Source: Candidatus Bathyarchaeia archaeon (lineage in GTDB: Archaea; Thermoproteota; Bathyarchaeia; 40CM-2-53-6). From it: 64,000 nucleotides of DNA. The stretch lies in NCBI GenBank assembly GCA_049517415.1, contig JBEKSC010000005.1:33746-97745 (forward strand), written 5' to 3'. Of this stretch, positions 11,507 through 33,876 are shown piece after piece. The translations under genes and the position numbers were made by a program. The notes under the pieces are model-generated. The model did not search any database, was not told the origin of the DNA, and saw only the letters and a list, made by a program, of their open reading frames with translations. How positions within the stretch are numbered: the first letter of the stretch is position 1; each line of letters starts with the position of its first letter.

Positions 11507-11601
11507 GGGCCCGTAGTCCAGCTGGTTAAGACGTCGCCCTCACATTATCGATGATATGGGAACGGCGGAGATCCCCGGTTCGAACCCGGGCGGGCCCACC
11601 A
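11507..11601 (+). tRNA. tRNA-Val(CAC) with 18-nt intron at 37/38 (11545-11562), encoded CCA
   Basis: GGGCCCG/CGGGCCC acceptor stem, GGTTCGAACCC T-arm, CT-CAC-A anticodon loop; BHB: CTCA/TGGG helix with CAT and AAC bulges. Confidence 0.95.
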
Positions 11602-26583: not shown

Positions 26584-26594
26584 ATTCCTCTTTT
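26584..26594 (+). repeat. attL core ATTCCTCTTTT
   Basis: Identical to 33866-33876. Confidence 0.7.
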
Positions 26595-26638
26595 TAACTT
26601 ATCGGTACGGTGTATAATAGCGCAGACTACTATGCGGC

Positions 26639-26800
26639 CTACCATTCGAACGGACATACCGGATTCTCGCATTGATGTAGCCCCGCATGTCCCTTTTCTC
26701 GCCCGCAAATATGCTCCTTGTGTAGGCCAGCAATGGCTCCGCATTTCTCCGCTTTCTCACGCCACGAAGTTATAGTTCCTGCTGCTGGGATATCTGACAA
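26639..26800 (-). CDS. Cys/His-rich micro-protein, 53 aa (missed by ORF track)
   Basis: MSDIPAAGTITSWREKAEKCGAIAGLHKEHICGREKGHAGLHQCENPVCPFEW; GGTGA SD-like motif upstream of TTG. Confidence 0.65.
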   Translation of the reverse strand: MSDIPAAGTITSWREKAEKCGAIAGLHKEHICGREKGHAGLHQCENPVCPFEW

Positions 26801-26805
26801 ATTCC

Positions 26806-26952
26806 CTACTCACCCTCATGGAGTGGCAGACCGCATTTAGGACAAATCGCAATATACACAGGCCCTTGTCTCCCATCAGGTAGCCTGACATATTCCCCGA
26901 ACCACGCCGGATAATCGAATTCCTTTTGGCATCCAAATACACAAAGCACCAT
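26806..26952 (-). CDS. CPxCG zinc-finger micro-protein, 48 aa (missed by ORF track)
   Basis: MVLCVFGCQKEFDYPAWFGEYVRLPDGRQGPVYIAICPKCGLPLHEGE; GGTGA SD 6 nt before ATG. Confidence 0.65.
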   Translation of the reverse strand: MVLCVFGCQKEFDYPAWFGEYVRLPDGRQGPVYIAICPKCGLPLHEGE

Positions 26953-27635
26953 CTTCTATCACCACAAAGAGAACCCCAACGGGATTGGGTATAAGTCTTG
27001 TCACCTAACTATCGACCTAAATTAGCCTTATTTTGCTATAGAGATACGTGAAAGCTATTTTGTTTGCCAAAAGAAGGTAAGTTTGGCCTATATATGACTA
27101 AAGGAACAAGAAAAGCATACGAGAAAAAAATGAGTTACTACTACTGTATATGTATTCGTATATAATATAATATAGGTATTGTACTTGGATGGTAGCAAGT
27201 AGCTAATGGAATATGGCGAGCAAGATGTTGCGAGCATATCAGTATATCAGATTGCAGTGATATATGATATTATATATTATTGTTTCTTAATTGATTAGAT
27301 GTATTCCGCCGCCCCCCCTTCGGGGCCTCCAAAAATGGGGGGGCAGTATAATGAGGATTTGGGGGGGCATAACCGAATAACCAATTTAGAAAGGCATAAA
27401 GCTATAATTTTCTATACTATTCTGTCTAAAACTATTAAAGTGCACTACATGGTATAGCGACAGCCTCCATATATAGAGAGTAGAAGGATATAATCATAAT
27501 TAGGCCAAAATTCGACGATATTAATAAATGCGGCAATCTGCACGCAAATAAGAATCATATAATGATAATCTGAGACATATAGAGTAAATAGAGACTAATA
27601 TGAGATGATTACATATATTAGTAGGGGGCCATAAG

Positions 27636-27983
27636 TTGGAACAATACATATTCAAGCAACTGAATGATAAATTAGATATCATAGACCTATTGCTCTACGA
27701 TAATTGGAGTATAGGAAGATTTTATGCTTGCCCCAAATGCGGGGCCAGAGGCAGACTAGGCATGGGAAAAACCCCTCGCTATGGTGTGTACTGTGTATAC
27801 ATGCTTCATCATAACTCAGAGGAATGTCACTTAGGAAGATTTGACTTGAGAGCATTGGGCCCTGAGAAGTTAAGGGACAATGCGAGGAAAATAACCACTA
27901 TCATAAAGACTAGAAGAGCAGAGCGACTAAATAAGAAAAATAATATCGAGAGATTGATAAATGGAAATAAAGATGAAACTTAG
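27636..27983 (+). CDS. CPKCG zinc-ribbon protein, putative DNA-binding
   Basis: CPKCGARGRL...H....CHLG plus basic C-terminus. Confidence 0.65.
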   Translation: MEQYIFKQLNDKLDIIDLLLYDNWSIGRFYACPKCGARGRLGMGKTPRYGVYCVYMLHHNSEECHLGRFDLRALGPEKLRDNARKITTIIKTRRAERLNKKNNIERLINGNKDET

Positions 27984-28042
27984 ATATAGAGCACATAAAA
28001 GAGGTATATTATATCATATATTACATAGAGGCAAGCATAAAC

Positions 28043-28189
28043 ATGAAAGATAAGCCATTAATAACAAAGGCTGAAAGAGAACTTCTAGCTAAACTTAAGG
28101 ATAAAATGTATAGCCCTAAAGATAAGAAAAAGTTGGAAAAGTTAGAGGATATATATGAAGAAAGCAGTACGGAAGAAGAAGCCCGATAA
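28043..28189 (+). CDS. Small charged protein, 48 aa
   Basis: MKDKPLITKAERELLAKLKDKMYSPKDKKKLEKLEDIYEESSTEEEAR. Confidence 0.45.
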   Translation: MKDKPLITKAERELLAKLKDKMYSPKDKKKLEKLEDIYEESSTEEEAR

Positions 28190-28287
28190 AGCAAAAATGA
28201 GTAATTCAACTATTGACCACTTCTATAATAGCGTAATATATACCGATGATAATGAGTATAGTAATAAAGATTAAGAGATAATATAAT

Positions 28288-28533
28288 ATGAATCCTTTAA
28301 ACTACTCCCAAACGGCAACACTAGCTAATTCGCAAGCAAGAGCATCTGTTGCCAGTGCCACATCTAGCGCCGCAAATAGCCCCAATGCTTCGGTCAATCA
28401 AGGGACGAGCAAAACTACAGCCGCATTGTCCGGTGCAAGTGTTACCAATAAGAATCCGAGCACAGGTACAACCTCAAGCAAATCGCTCAGTGCCGCTAGT
28501 GGCTTCACACAAGGCGGTTTCTACGGAGAATAA
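28288..28533 (+). CDS. Ser/Ala/Thr-rich low-complexity protein, 81 aa
   Basis: ORF track; locally higher GC than flanks. Confidence 0.6.
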   Translation: MNPLNYSQTATLANSQARASVASATSSAANSPNASVNQGTSKTTAALSGASVTNKNPSTGTTSSKSLSAASGFTQGGFYGE

Positions 28534-28568
28534 AACGAATACAATTAGCATATAAGGAGTGATATATA

Positions 28569-28718
28569 ATGACAACATATTATACTGATACAACATATAC
28601 AAGCGCAAGAGAAATGCAAGCGGCCATAAATGCTATGGATACATCAGTAACAACCATAGTATTTATTTTCAAAGGCGGATTGGCGGATTTTCACCTAATA
28701 ACAATGCCAGCAGCATAA
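28569..28718 (+). CDS. Micro-protein, 49 aa
   Basis: AAGGAGTGA SD; MTTYYTDTTYTSAREMQAAINAMDTSVTTIVFIFKGGLADFHLITMPAA. Confidence 0.65.
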   Translation: MTTYYTDTTYTSAREMQAAINAMDTSVTTIVFIFKGGLADFHLITMPAA

Positions 28719-28752
28719 CCTATGATATATTAATAATATAAGGAGATGATAT

Positions 28753-28854
28753 ATGATGGCACATCCAGATACAGCAACCGTTGACCGTGTTGTTCCTGAA
28801 AGACGTAGACGAAGGCAATATGCACCTGTCAACAGTTATAATCTAACGAGTTAA
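28753..28854 (+). CDS. Arg-rich micro-peptide, 33 aa
   Basis: AAGGAGATGA SD; MMAHPDTATVDRVVPERRRRRQYAPVNSYNLTS. Confidence 0.55.
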   Translation: MMAHPDTATVDRVVPERRRRRQYAPVNSYNLTS

Positions 28855-28906
28855 TTATTATAGTTTTATACTATAAATATATAATATAAAAGGAGATGAA
28901 TATCAT

Positions 28907-29593
28907 ATGAATGATATAAAAGAACAAATGCAAAAAGATAAGAAAGACAGACTATTAAGACAGACTAAGAGTGAATACCACCTCGACCAAGGTTTAGACC
29001 AAACTAAATTTGCTGGTCAGCCAAATGGTTATATTAGCGAATCTACCAACAACCCCAATCCCGTATTAGTAAGCCATAGCATTATCGAAGCTAAAGAGGA
29101 TAGAGTTAAAGACATGTTGGCAAAAGAGGCTATGAATAAGAAAATAGCAATACAAGAAGCATATAATGACTATAGTACACCTAATACCATTATGGACACG
29201 GGACAGCATGTAGATTTGGCTTATGGACGGTCTAAAGCTCCAAATGATAGGGGATTTAAACATATTTCAGACAGTACACGTAGATATGCACAACCTAAAC
29301 TTATAAAGAACATACTACAAGGCCATGCATCTATATACTATTGCACAAGCCATGATGAGATATTAGGATATAACAATAGGTCAGTATTTGATAATAGACT
29401 ACATACAAAAGAAACGCATTGTGAAGTAATGAAACTATCTGATGCACAAATACTATCAGAGTTCCCAGAAATTCGAACCCTCTTGGCAAACATTAACAGC
29501 CTGAGTACGAATTTGAGTGTAGCGCAGCCAAGCTCCAATTCCGACATATCGGAGTCAGGATGCTATAATCCCCTTAAGCGGAAAAGAGCATAA
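28907..29593 (+). CDS. Hypothetical protein, 228 aa
   Basis: AAGGAGATGA SD; possible CxxH...H....C metal site. Confidence 0.7.
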   Translation: MNDIKEQMQKDKKDRLLRQTKSEYHLDQGLDQTKFAGQPNGYISESTNNPNPVLVSHSIIEAKEDRVKDMLAKEAMNKKIAIQEAYNDYSTPNTIMDTGQHVDLAYGRSKAPNDRGFKHISDSTRRYAQPKLIKNILQGHASIYYCTSHDEILGYNNRSVFDNRLHTKETHCEVMKLSDAQILSEFPEIRTLLANINSLSTNLSVAQPSSNSDISESGCYNPLKRKRA

Positions 29594-29743
29594 ATTCCCT
29601 ATATTTTTTAATATATAGGTAAAATAACGCAAAATAATGCGAAATAAGGTGAGTATATAAAATAAAAGTTGCGGTATGGAGCCTTATGCATCCCACGGCA
29701 TAAGACTCTGTACCAATACATTAATCCATATAGGTGTGTCTAT

Positions 29744-30616
29744 ATGAACAGTAGTATATATAGTAAGAACGGATATATAAATATATCGGACAGACATAAT
29801 AGACGTTCCAAAGGAGCATACTTTGAACGTATAGTATATGACTTTTTATATGATTTAGATAATAAAGAATTAATACATAATCAATTTAATGATAAGATAG
29901 CTGATATTATATATAAAGATAATTATATTGAATGTAAGAATTGGGAGAATACGACTAACTTAACTGGCTTGCTCATAGCTACTCAGATAACGCCCAAATT
30001 TAATGACAGCAAAAACAAGCACCGGATAGCCCTATTCAAGAATAAGATGAACCTAACCCGTAAGGCTAAAGACTTGCTCGCCAAGCACAACATAGCGTAC
30101 ATGGCTTGGGACACATTCAAAGCATGGATTAGAGCTAAGATTAAACCAAAAACAGCCAGTTTAAGGCAGGTCATTTACCGTAGCTATAATGATAGATACA
30201 GTAGATGTAATAGCAATGATGGACAGCCTGCGTATGGTATGGCTAACTGTGATAGGACAATACCTATAAATGGCTGTTCTAATGAAAGAGATATTATATA
30301 TATTAATTATTTATCTAATCCTATTGACAGCCCCCCCAAAAACCCTGAATTAGCCGAATATGAAAGCAATCTCGGTATATTGTCTCGATTGAAGCTATGG
30401 AAATCATATTGGCCTTTAAAGAAAGAATATGAGAGGTATTTAGAGGTTTTGGGCGGGTATTATAATAGGTTTGAGGGTCATAAAGATATAACTATAACTA
30501 AAGAACAATATGGTTATAAAGTCAATGATAAAGTCTACTTCTATTCATTCTATGAAGCATTAGAATACATATATAGGGTATATGGAACAGATATTAGTAT
30601 TCATAGATTAGATTAA
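29744..30616 (+). CDS. PD-(D/E)XK (restriction-endonuclease-like) nuclease; ATG 29744 preferred over TTG 29669
   Basis: KGAYFE (motif I), ADII (II), YIECKNW (III); AGGTG SD at 29732. Confidence 0.75.
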   Translation: MNSSIYSKNGYINISDRHNRRSKGAYFERIVYDFLYDLDNKELIHNQFNDKIADIIYKDNYIECKNWENTTNLTGLLIATQITPKFNDSKNKHRIALFKNKMNLTRKAKDLLAKHNIAYMAWDTFKAWIRAKIKPKTASLRQVIYRSYNDRYSRCNSNDGQPAYGMANCDRTIPINGCSNERDIIYINYLSNPIDSPPKNPELAEYESNLGILSRLKLWKSYWPLKKEYERYLEVLGGYYNRFEGHKDITITKEQYGYKVNDKVYFYSFYEALEYIYRVYGTDISIHRLD

Positions 30617-30668
30617 TATATCATATTCCCACACAGACAAAAGACATACAAAGGGATTAGTCGATGAA

Positions 30669-30923
30669 GGGTGGTCGGTCAGTCTCACCTCTCCGATGAA
30701 CACCCAGAGGCTTTTCCCCTCTCAAATTATGCTCATATGAACGGAATACATGTGAGGGCCGTGCCTGTATTGAATAGCATTATTCAACCTAGTAATGCCT
30801 TTCCTTACCCACGTTTGGAATAGATGCGGGGTTAAACACGGTCGAACGTCCGGCATATGAAAGTATGCCATAAGAAGGCGGCTCAGTTAGTAAGGCAGAT
30901 ACCCCTTCGGCTGCAGCCGTCTT
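30669..30923 (+). ncRNA. Candidate structured RNA of unknown family
   Basis: At least seven helices including G-U pairs on the + strand, a GAAA tetraloop and a potential pseudoknot; GC-richer than flanks; no ORF. Confidence 0.6.
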
Positions 30924-30955
30924 ACTTCTAATAATATAATAAAGAGATATAATAT

Positions 30956-31363
30956 ATGACCTATTATACTCATACTAAGTATACTACTATTATTAGACAA
31001 TATCTTGAGAAACCAGAAGGTGCATATCCAATAGAAGAACCTCTAAATCAATATCAGGTTTATGAGTTAAATAAGGTCATTAAGAAACTTAAGCTATATG
31101 ATTCTATAAGGACGTTCACGGTTAAAGGCACTCCATTCATTAGGCGTATAGGCATAGGTATTATCCCCTCTTGGTTCGATTTACCAGAGCCGAGAAAGAG
31201 GCATGTTAAGCCTATAGCTCCCCCAGAAAACTATTCTGTAGTTGGTCAAGAGAAAGAACCATCATATATGCCTATAGCTAATCCATCCGGTTCAATGAGT
31301 GAGGTAGCTAATTATTATGATACTGCTTGGGCACGGTTGAAGCGTAGGCAAGCCTCATACTGA
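30956..31363 (+). CDS. Hypothetical protein, 135 aa
   Basis: ORF track; leader resembles that of 28288. Confidence 0.6.
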   Translation: MTYYTHTKYTTIIRQYLEKPEGAYPIEEPLNQYQVYELNKVIKKLKLYDSIRTFTVKGTPFIRRIGIGIIPSWFDLPEPRKRHVKPIAPPENYSVVGQEKEPSYMPIANPSGSMSEVANYYDTAWARLKRRQASY

Positions 31364-31760
31364 AAAAAGAATATAACATCATATAAGTGGTATCTCCCAT
31401 ACCACCCTAATGACTTTTGGAAAGCAGTTTTTCCTATAATAGCGATAGCCTTACACGCTATCAGGTGTAATTAATAGTATTAAGAAGAGAGAGAATTATC
31501 ATCTATAAGTCTTATCTTCTATGTATATCATATTATATATAGGCGTTTTTCTGCTTTATTGTTGTTTTGGGGGGGTAAAGATGTGGTTAAACCTATTCCA
31601 TACAGTCAGAGGGGGGCATTACCACAATTAGTAAGATAAGATATATAATATACTATACCATAGTTATAAATCAATTCAGTTTGGAGTAAAGAATATCACC
31701 CATTTATGAGGACTTTGGGGAAGAGACTCACACAAGCACGCACGCACGTATTTCCAATCA

Positions 31761-31910
31761 ATATCACTAATGGTCATGGGTAAATTGCTATATATCACTA
31801 ATTCTATGTCTAATATCCATAATTTAGGTATATGAAAAACGCTAATATATACATAAATCCCTATTATTGAGGCTCTAATACCACTAATAGATACTTATAA
31901 TATCACTAAT
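31761..31910 (+). repeat. Four ATAYCACTAAT direct repeats (iteron-like)
   Basis: Copies at 31761, 31792, 31878 (ATACCACTAAT) and 31900. Confidence 0.6.
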
Positions 31911-32017
31911 ATGACCTACGGTATAGCCTATAATATGGGTTATAAACGGACATAATATAGATTATAAGAGGATACAACATAAGGATAAGATGGGGCGTGA
32001 TACCAGCCCCAAAGGGT

Positions 32018-32338
32018 CTATACGGTGTTTCGCATCTTTCCTTTCTGAGCCTTACCTAATGCTGTGACTCTATCCTTTTGTGTTTGTAGCGCACGCAATT
32101 CCTCTTTGTCTAAGGCTCGTATGTCAACGAAAAATCGGCCAGTAGCCTTATCCCGTTTCTTGATTGCCTTATAGCCTAACCATTTCAAAGCCTGTAGCAA
32201 TCCTGTATATTCCCTGTTTGAAGACAAGAAGTATGCTTCTTTGCCTTGCTTCTCAATGATGCTCTTGGCTGTCGCCTTGTTTGGTGTTTCTCCGGTCTTT
32301 GCTTGCTCAGACTGAGTAGGCCATTTCTCAAATCCCAT
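32018..32338 (-). CDS. Basic hypothetical protein, 106 aa
   Basis: AGGTGA SD; co-directional downstream of the integrase-like gene. Confidence 0.7.
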   Translation of the reverse strand: MGFEKWPTQSEQAKTGETPNKATAKSIIEKQGKEAYFLSSNREYTGLLQALKWLGYKAIKKRDKATGRFFVDIRALDKEELRALQTQKDRVTALGKAQKGKMRNTV

Positions 32339-32396
32339 TCTATATCACCTGCCTTTGGATATTGGCCAGAGATAGATATGATATAAGATATAAGGA

Positions 32397-33593
32397 TTAT
32401 CTATTTAGAGCCTTAAGTTGTTTGTCTATTGCCTCAATTTTGAGCCTTATTCGTTTCATTTCCTCAGATTCTTCAAAACCTGCCATGCCTACAGTATCAG
32501 GCCTAGAAATACCCGCTTTAATGGCTTTCTCTTGCAATTCTTGATATTTAGCTTGCCATTGTCGCTTTTCTTCCTCTAATCTAGGAATGACGACTTCTTC
32601 CAGCGCCCTATATTTCTGTTCGAGTGTTTCAACGTCCTTCTTAGTTGGCGGTGCAGTGTATGACCATAGCTTCTTTAGCTCATTATACACGTTTGTTTCC
32701 TCATAGTATTCCCTTCGATACCCGAATTTGTCTCCCCCTACAGAATGGCCTCTTACATATTCGATAGTGCCACTATCTACCTTGGCTAATCCGGCTGTGC
32801 TTTCGAAGGTTGATACTAGGACATGGCAACCTAGACCAGCATACCACAGTTTAGCCTTCTTAGCTCCCCTTCTGAAATTCTCCCGTAGGTCATATGCAGT
32901 AATTGGTGTGCCCCCTCTTTGTTGTTTGTTTGTTGGCTTGCCCTTCCTATCAAGACCGCCTACGATATGTGTAAGTAATGGGAGTGTTTTGGGGAATAGG
33001 CTCTTAGGTATCAACGTGTAGAATACAGTTGTACCGGACTTACGGGGTTTGAGGTCAATTCTGATATAGTCTTTCGTATTGTTCCATTGTTCTTTGATAT
33101 TCTCGATTAGCTCGGAGTTGGTGTTTAGTTCTTCTATCTCGTCTGCTCCCATGCCTGATATTCTCATAACTCGGTATAAGGTTCTATAAGGCTCATCTGT
33201 TTCTATGATAATCTTCTCGGAATCGTCAAAATTTAGATATGCTTTTCTTCGTTTTTCCTTTACATTTAGCTCATCTAAATCAATGGTAATGTTCTTGATT
33301 TTATGCTTCTTTAGGAAGCTCAGTATAGCATAGGCTGTTTGGTTGGCCTTAGAAGTGCTTCGTTTCCATAGAACACTGAGTTTGTCGTCTATGTCTGAAC
33401 CGGCTTTTTCTGGGTTATCTTTGCATTGTTGTAAGAATTCGGCGGGTGCTTGAGTGCCCAAGTATTGCATAAAATATTTGGAGTAGAGGTTGAATGTGCT
33501 TTTCTCGCCTTTGAACTTCGCTTCCCATATTTCTATTTCTGGTATCTTCTGAAATTGTTCTAATCGTTTTTTCGTGCCGTTACTTGAGGCCAT
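32397..33593 (-). CDS. Tyrosine recombinase/integrase-fold protein (atypical active site); ATG 33593 has GAGGT SD, ORF opens at 33614
   Basis: SGMGADE, PRK, FYTL, HVLV, RGH....DKFGY layout of archaeal integrases; C-terminal coiled coil. Confidence 0.75.
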   Translation of the reverse strand: MASSNGTKKRLEQFQKIPEIEIWEAKFKGEKSTFNLYSKYFMQYLGTQAPAEFLQQCKDNPEKAGSDIDDKLSVLWKRSTSKANQTAYAILSFLKKHKIKNITIDLDELNVKEKRRKAYLNFDDSEKIIIETDEPYRTLYRVMRISGMGADEIEELNTNSELIENIKEQWNNTKDYIRIDLKPRKSGTTVFYTLIPKSLFPKTLPLLTHIVGGLDRKGKPTNKQQRGGTPITAYDLRENFRRGAKKAKLWYAGLGCHVLVSTFESTAGLAKVDSGTIEYVRGHSVGGDKFGYRREYYEETNVYNELKKLWSYTAPPTKKDVETLEQKYRALEEVVIPRLEEEKRQWQAKYQELQEKAIKAGISRPDTVGMAGFEESEEMKRIRLKIEAIDKQLKALNR

Positions 33594-33837
33594 TCTGAAT
33601 GACCTCTTGCTCATTTCCTAAGACCTCATCTAATTTCGAAAGTTGAGACTTGTAGGCTCGGCCATGATTTGCATGATGGCACTGGCAGGTACACTTAAAT
33701 TTCTTAGCTCGCTCACAGCGCCCATTCCCACAGTGACAGGCGACAGAGGCAAACATCTGAGGCTCAACTGGCTTGACTTCAAAAATTTCAAACCATTCAA
33801 GACCTTCCCCACGTTCACGTTCAATTCGAGTTTCCAA
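33580..33837 (-). CDS. Cys-rich protein (CxC..C..A....CxCxC...NHG), 85 aa from TTG 33837
   Basis: CHCGNGRCERAKKFKCTCQCHHANHG; the longer track start crosses attR and overlaps rpl40e. Confidence 0.7.
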   Translation of the reverse strand: METRIERERGEGLEWFEIFEVKPVEPQMFASVACHCGNGRCERAKKFKCTCQCHHANHGRAYKSQLSKLDEVLGNEQEVIQNGLK

Positions 33838-33865
33838 ATTTATACACGCTATCGGTATAAGAAAG

Positions 33866-33876
33866 ATTCCTCTTTT
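33866..33876 (+). repeat. attR core ATTCCTCTTTT
   Basis: Identical to 26584-26594. Confidence 0.7.

Follow-up and report, generated by a model that had tools for sequence, protein, structure and literature searches.

What is encoded in the GC-richer patch of DNA that follows a candidate nuclease gene in a small mobile element of a Bathyarchaeia archaeon from peat? The patch lies in a window of 64,000 nucleotides (the whole stretch of DNA that was analysed). A first-pass annotation had described it as a multi-stem, probably pseudoknotted RNA downstream of a PD-(D/E)XK nuclease gene, and had proposed an undescribed nuclease-RNA complex, a ribozyme or a replication RNA; all the sequences it quoted are present where it placed them. 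From an abstract perspective, the question may be partitioned into three parts: whether there is an RNA, whether the neighbouring protein is a nuclease, and whether the two belong together.

The Integrated Element

The patch is part of an integrated element (Table 1) whose end repeats sit in the eL40 promoter. The UDG and eL40 genes adjoin in all five same-genus genomes in which both were mapped, and in nine of nine genomes read nothing interrupts the 150 nt ahead of eL40; a tenth, G004, gave no eL40 match. Direct repeats, an integrase-like gene and an empty site in relatives, the hallmarks of a cryptic integrated element, are thus all present, and the element contains the sole stretch of the genome below 40% GC. 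Its integrase-like gene, which we take to be tyrosine-recombinase-like on the basis of its motifs, has relatives in 9 of 104 genomes of the order. It encodes Val where both aligned relatives keep the Arg of the H-x-x-R motif; all three proteins lack the usual first Arg and have a PRKS motif in common. Because the H-x-x-R Arg has been lost, the element may have become stranded. Its make-up matches that of the cryptic integrated elements described in Thaumarchaeota, which are likewise small, carry an integrase-like gene and cargo without assigned function, and have direct repeats that are short, but it differs from them in having an integrase that lost one catalytic Arg; the main text of that source uses the term non-coding 0 times (PMC6563490).

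In one metagenome scan we found two near-identical copies of the locus (L002, L003). Both lack 29972-30023 (52 nt, a frameshift in ORF290) and 27009-27050 (42 nt), which reflects either a variant or an assembly fault. The region 29400-31400 is intact in one contig and free of differences in four of four sequencing runs, which may be the source DNA. A search of sequencing runs returned 20 DNA runs that carry the locus, with no RNA run among the matches listed.

Table 1. Positions of the features discussed, in window coordinates
Feature	Position	Strand	Description
Left direct repeat	26584..26594	+	11 bp
Integrated element	26595..33876	.	7,282 bp, 38% GC, between UDG and eL40 genes
Inverted repeat before ORF290	29673..29714	.	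16 bp, interrupted
Start-codon hairpin	29727..29746	+	7 bp; ORF290 start codon in 3' arm, part of SD-like site in loop
ORF290	29744..30616	+	N-terminal PD-(D/E)XK-type motif (E28, D54, E63, K65), small C-terminal alpha/beta domain
Predicted structured RNA	30653..30923	+	271 nt, five adjacent domains; fold-inferred ends
Domain I	30653..30718	+	basal helix 30653-62/30709-18 (tandem U.U); kink-turn; helix 30669-78/30693-705 (3-nt bulge); apical loop of 14 nt; p 0.94-1.0
Standard kink-turn	30659..30712	+	C helix 30659-62/30709-12 (-1b:-1n C:G), bulge GAU 30663-65; from sequence and predicted fold
Apical loop of domain I	30679..30692	+	pyrimidine-rich; 7 nt (UCACCUC) common to host 16S 3' end
Domain II	30732..30756	+	8-bp hairpin, 9-nt loop; p 0.99; z -2.4 (+), -0.2 (-)
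Domain III	30757..30843	+	7-bp closing helix, helix 30764-70/30824-30, hairpin 30777-98; p 1.0, 0.7, 0.99; z -2.3 (+), -0.8 (-)
Candidate pseudoknot	30803..30895	+	six Watson-Crick pairs between 30803-08 and 30890-95; at chance level
Domain IV	30852..30869	+	7-bp hairpin, GAAA tetraloop; p 0.99; z -3.7 on both strands
Domain V	30875..30923	+	9+3-bp helix, 24-nt inner region; p 1.0; z -3.2 (+), -1.0 (-)
ORF135	30956..31363	+	protein without assigned function, alternative RNA partner; starts 32 nt after the RNA
Tyrosine-recombinase-like gene	32397..33614	-	no Pfam hit
Right direct repeat	33866..33876	+	11 bp

A Predicted Structured RNA on the Plus Strand

The patch is indeed GC-richer than its surroundings: at 49.4%, against 35.7% for 27000-32000, it is the top 255-nt window of that region, where the ORF81 region reaches up to 49.0%; the host flanks have 50.3%. 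It is free of overlapping ORFs of at least 60 aa, as had been noted, but shorter ones of 50 aa (+) and 49 aa (-) do overlap it.

Measured between 30669 and 30923, the plus strand folds better than shuffled sequences (z -3.81, 0/200 shuffles), and other choices of its ends gave z -3.41 (2/200 shuffles), -2.96 and -3.0 (0/60). The minus strand of the region reaches z -0.46, and folding as DNA only z -1.92 (+) and -0.11 (-), which agrees with the earlier preference for a plus-strand RNA over a DNA cruciform. Sixty pairs exceed p 0.9 in the fold, a number equalled by 4 of 316 shuffles, and 11 of the 81 pairs in the centroid are G.U. For comparison, the same folding test assigns z -4.5 to the SRP RNA of the host and z -1.7 to its RNase P RNA. 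The z-score of the region is not decisive by itself, because six of the 94 strand-windows examined elsewhere in the island also have z <= -3 (15 shuffles each); a gap window with z < -2.5 likewise occurs in four of seven other integrase-flanking segments. The fold is real on the plus strand only, and the strand asymmetry seen in four of the five domains, together with the kink-turn described below, supports a structured plus-strand RNA beyond the evidence of the first-pass annotation.

The 255-nt RNA proposed at 30669-30923 therefore stands as a folded RNA but not with its start, which now lies 16 nt earlier, at 30653 and 36 nt behind the ORF290 stop codon on the same strand; at the other end, a 3-bp extension to 30927 is possible. 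Five of the seven helices described hold at p 0.96-1.0 in three sequence contexts (30669-78/30693-705, 30732-56, 30757-63/30837-43, 30852-69 and 30875-83/30915-23), but two are out-competed. The AGAGG/CCTCT pairing at 30706-22 drops to p 0.00-0.01 once 30653-62 is included, which pairs with 30709-18 instead, and TTGAATA/TATTCAA (p 0.0) is displaced by 30777-84/30791-98 at p 0.99. Domain I has z -1.5 on the plus and -0.1 on the minus strand, and about 25 nt of domain III (30799-823) are poorly paired. The pseudoknot fared less well: both 6-bp pairings are present, yet 8.8% of partner-strand shuffles give one of equal length. In 250 of the 316 folds of shuffled sequence, a loop-loop match equals that of the real centroid in length, and pairing with TGCCTT would take up bases that belong to a firm helix. 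A pseudoknot is accordingly only possible. As a side observation, domains II and III (30732-30759, 30764-30833) resemble an internal duplication, each having an 8-bp arm followed by GAA, with a run of GGAATA ahead of the 3' arm.

A Predicted Kink-Turn in Domain I

The upstream extension of the RNA contains a standard kink-turn, which had been missed. Judged by sequence and predicted fold, it has the C helix, 3-nt bulge, tandem G.A/A.G pairs and NC helix of the published definition (PMC8191799): the G.A and A.G pairs are formed by 30666-67/30707-08, 3b:3n is A:A and the NC helix, which is rich in G-C pairs, is 30669-73/30701-05. How readily might such a motif arise by chance? By sequence it turns up in 32 of 1000 shuffles, and none of the 1000 has it within the predicted fold. 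Across the whole genome (5.29 Mb, both strands) there are 879 raw motifs and 24 fold-supported sites, of which three, that of the RNA among them, remain under strict terms (C:G closure, L3 = U, non-Watson-Crick 3b:3n). The genome scan sets the expected rate at about 0.001 per 283 nt. The odds from shuffles and genome alike are generous, since we drew up the rule only once we had seen the motif. As a fair positive control, 1 of the 24 sites falls on the rRNA-bearing contig C22, downstream of a 23S mark. Another of the three strict sites, G000:C2:134996, is located just before another integrase-like gene of the genome.

Many archaeal kink-turn RNAs are bound by L7Ae, and the same GAU bulge is found in the kink-turn of the S. 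acidocaldarius l7ae leader (PMC5539422). The host genome encodes two L7Ae-family genes. In its standard kink-turn, GAU bulge and C:G closure, and in the presence of a host L7Ae, the RNA thus resembles the L7Ae-bound RNAs of archaea, that is, C/D, H/ACA and RNase P RNAs and the l7ae leader (PMC5539422, PMC8191799), but it belongs to none of the guide RNA classes among them. Neither a C box (UGAUGA) nor a D box (CUGA) occurs in 30617-30955. H/ACA guide RNAs place an ACA 14-16 nt from the kink-turn; here there is no pocket below the kink-turn, and the first ACA after domain I, at 30748, lies 29 nt on and inside domain II. The RNase P and SRP families (RF00373, RF01857) do not match the RNA and have single host copies on C19 and C7. 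We also considered a bulge-helix-bulge splice site for domain I and rejected it by eye, since its bulges would be on the wrong side of the helix.

Is ORF290 a Nuclease?

The neighbouring gene had been taken to encode a PD-(D/E)XK nuclease. The E, D and E-x-K of the catalytic motif are there, but no profile hit is significant. ORF290 has no Pfam or PADLOC match, and neither it nor ORF135 has a Pfam family at E up to 1. ESM Atlas assigns ORF290 Mrr-like/PDDEXK features at 0.84-0.87, under the 0.9 bar, with ten of its ten best family hits in one clan; a PHROG match to a resolvase family (E 0.018) is under the bar of that tool. A structure model reached pLDDT 38 and its fold search came back empty, and the C-terminal part, modelled separately at pLDDT 56, had no usable fold match; this part may be akin to the DNA-binding motifs of homing endonucleases.

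We found only two independent relatives of ORF290, P0002/P0005 and P0004/P0006; no further ones appeared in viral contigs, in GTDB or in 400 genomes of the class. P0005 is 52% identical to ORF290, and P0006 shares the C-terminal 55 aa (E 7e-14) and the E-C-K motif. E63-C64-K65 is invariant in the three proteins, at identities of 24-52%, and D54 is retained in P0005 and one column off in P0006. Judged by this pattern of residues and by the sub-threshold Atlas and PHROG leads, ORF290 is likely of the nuclease class. The observation that the neighbour is not IscB or TnpB was borne out, as no TnpB, IscB, HNH or RuvC profile was found for ORF290 or ORF135. No methylase-like match was found among the element ORFs scanned.

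The DNA before ORF290 has hairpins of its own (29531-65, 29598-619, 29673-714 and 29727-46); 29472-29747 as a whole has z -3.7 (+) and -4.7 (-). Because 29665-29750 folds equally on both strands (z -3.8 on the plus, -4.9 on the minus strand), the inverted repeat in it is perhaps a DNA site.

Relatives of the RNA

A search with cmscan against Rfam 15, which had been named as a test of novelty, returned no family at gathering score, the best match over the RNA being SNORA14 (E 7, 13 of 36 bits). By sequence and model comparison, then, the RNA belongs to no Rfam family and is uncatalogued. BLAST with 30600-30960 gave 0 matches in 100 related genomes. With 27000-32400, 14 of 400 class genomes matched, none of them over the RNA among the best two candidates per genome. 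In further searches with the RNA, phages returned five records at E 3 and plasmids none.

A covariance model, R1, was built from one sequence and is limited in reach accordingly. It found no second copy in the own genome, and none in 150 relatives or 150 phylum genomes (0/150 each). Five gapped patterns hit 33, 5, at least 117 (80 scanned), 2 and 0 loci in viral contigs, of which R1 accepted 0 of 120; one gapped pattern hit 73 loci in GTDB, with 0 accepted. On 12 integrase-neighbour loci R1 likewise accepted 0.

How Might the RNA Act?

A functional RNA of whatever job is probable. Our preferred reading, to which we give a probability of roughly 0.27, is that the RNA would be bound by L7Ae and would itself bind and restrain the ORF290 nuclease. 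We favour it because of the analogy with AbiFr and with the RNA layout behind TnpB. AbiFr and its nuclease AbiF are a precedent of a nuclease with an adjacent RNA (reviewed in PMC12737573), and a RAGATH-18 RNA with a possible kink-turn lies behind the TnpB gene of IS607 (PMC11061315). We envision a scenario whereby 30653-30923 would be a non-coding RNA of this small archaeal element, transcribed together with ORF290 or from an own start near 30640. Host L7Ae would bind the kink-turn and bend domain I, and the folded RNA would bind the nuclease and keep it inactive, as AbiFr does AbiF. Together with the start-codon hairpin, the RNA might keep such a methylase-less nuclease safe and exact a cost when the element is lost, either as an addiction system or as abortive defence.

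The RNA may thus work like that of a type III toxin-antitoxin system, with which, as with AbiF/AbiFr, it has in common a cis-encoded position beside a nuclease gene. In contrast, the toxins of those systems are RNases, HEPN in the case of AbiF (PMC12737573), and we obtained no HEPN, ToxN, CptN or TenpN hit. The RNA is also unlike type III antitoxins in having 271 nt and a kink-turn, and there is no tandem repeat of the ToxI type inside it among the 20 largest repeat families.

What speaks against restraint? Nucleases of the Mrr type cleave modified DNA and do not require an inhibitor, and to our knowledge RNA antitoxins pair with RNases (ToxN, HEPN) and not with the PD-(D/E)XK fold. The weak link is the partnership of RNA and ORF290, for which the evidence is adjacency at a single locus; any RNA would have some neighbour in an element of 7 kb. 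A sister element of 4.2 kb, located before a uL15-like gene (L022 10645-14880, G011:C1), encodes a related integrase and contains the same small Cys-rich gene; its PD-(D/E)XK-motif gene is unrelated (hhalign 0.2%). No folded RNA was found behind that gene and no kink-turn; such cargo therefore needs no RNA.

A little less tentative is the claim that ORF290, the RNA and host L7Ae might form a ribonucleoprotein in which a 270-nt RNA checks or aims a PD-(D/E)XK nuclease. A literature search found no PD-(D/E)XK nuclease with a partner RNA, a weak blank, since the term itself is not searchable; in the accessible part of the Minerva preprint (10.64898/2026.09.22.753630), the word nuclease occurs 0 times. 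RNA-controlled nucleases of mobile elements such as TnpB, IscB and AbiF are the stock from which CRISPR effectors originated. If true, a nuclease of restriction-enzyme fold with its own structured RNA and a borrowed L7Ae would add a new fold to these RNA-controlled nucleases; should the RNA alone prove real, the gain would still be a kink-turn RNA, absent from the catalogues, in an element of an archaeon. With one locus at hand, RNA and ORF290 are at present a lead, not a system.

Alternative Explanations

Close behind restraint in rank comes a real L7Ae-bound RNA whose job would be unrelated to ORF290, a doubtful yet serious contender. Conceivably, it could act as a free small RNA, team up with ORF135 or with some other protein of the element, or serve as a structured intercistronic leader that sets ORF135 translation. 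The evidence of fold and kink-turn applies to it in full, the RNA ends 32 nt before ORF135, and archaeal mRNA translation can be controlled by L7Ae via kink-turns (PMC5539422). The apical loop of domain I, with the 7 nt it has in common with the 16S 3' end, could moreover pair with Shine-Dalgarno sites and mask them, although this is a weak suggestion and the duplexes are weak: among eight element genes the best is that with the ORF290 site (-8.7 kcal/mol), the others ranging from -5.9 to -7.4. As for a translation switch, we infer that five domains exceed its needs; in addition, the ORF135 start region is outside the fold and no competing fold appears. For ORF135 itself only a 99% copy was found, and for both ORF135 and ORF228 the 104 order genomes returned nothing except one false hit.

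Could the structure instead be a matter of chance, in a scrap of GC-richer DNA that encodes no functional RNA? Its GC content is at host level (49% versus 50%), low z-scores also occur in the other island windows and integrase-flanking segments mentioned above, domain I alone stays at z -1.5, and no search returned an RNA homologue. Against this, five adjacent domains each beat shuffles on one strand, the kink-turn is rare at the rate estimated above, and BLAST found no host source of the RNA region. We consider chance structure unlikely.

Less likely again is a ribozyme, or a relic of a self-splicing intron with ORF290 as its former homing endonuclease. The size and multi-helix layout of the RNA would suit it, as would the start-codon hairpin and small C-terminal domain of ORF290, which we take to be reminiscent of homing-endonuclease genes; that domain, however, has no match. 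No intron or ribozyme family of Rfam appears at E up to 10. Inspection by eye found no P3-P7 core or P7 guanosine site of a group I intron, no group II domain V and no hammerhead stem II, and the GAAA hairpin lacks the lower helix of domain V. The flanks of ORF290 pair at no more than 10.1 kcal/mol, and there is no interrupted gene, ORF135 being preceded by a stop codon that is in frame and two codons ahead of its ATG. The ribozyme put forward initially thus found no support.

The idea that ORF290 is RNA-guided, with the RNA as scaffold and a guide at its 5' or 3' flank or at 30799-823, is in our view improbable. Its layout, a nuclease gene followed by a kink-turn RNA, is that of IS607 TnpB and its RAGATH-18-derived reRNA, also a structured RNA that belongs to a mobile element and may have a kink-turn (PMC11061315). 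However, the effector there is TnpB, whereas ORF290 lacks a TnpB profile and neither an Rfam match nor a guide was found for the RNA; in place of an IS607 transposase, the element has an integrase-like gene and att repeats. HEARO and omega RNAs are multi-helix RNAs beside the nuclease genes of IscB and IsrB, and the size range of omega RNAs takes in an RNA of this length. The likeness in size, build and adjoining nuclease gene is set against the lack of an Rfam hit and of an HNH or RuvC profile, and against a pseudoknot at chance level. The longest guide-like matches measure 7 nt (empty site), 8 nt (excised-circle junction) and 11 nt (rest of the element), all within shuffled ranges, and the longest in the host, of 15 nt, does not exceed shuffles either and is inside a coding region. 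Two matches of 14-15 nt on contig C2 were dropped, both being in coding DNA. The absence of guide matches to the empty site, the circle junction and the element weighs against homing by guide.

The replication reading proposed earlier likewise found no support. An origin of single-stranded DNA replication, or some other cluster of DNA hairpins, is suggested by the mobile-element setting and the hairpins but is very improbable given the poor folding as DNA, a kink-turn and GNRA loop that are RNA features, and the lack of a Rep-like match among the ORFs scanned.

Further Observations

Several features outside the RNA deserve mention. ORF106 (32018-32338) has a weak match to an AbiEi model (PADLOC, E 0.005). 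A tRNA gene at 11507-11601 carries an insertion near the anticodon and received no ARAGORN assignment. Before and in ORF115, 27512-27787 folds with z -4.0 on the plus strand (15 shuffles), and a fold-supported kink-turn motif is present on the minus strand at 27777-27817. In same-genus genomes, the gene for the ATP-cone ribonucleotide reductase is preceded by a promoter-like block of 42 nt, to which 12 of 22 such genomes have matches and which also occurs at G000:C4:36315-36356. Ahead of ORF115, 27403-27444 is a copy of this block at 85-91%. The copy points into the element, which may thus borrow the reductase regulation of its host.
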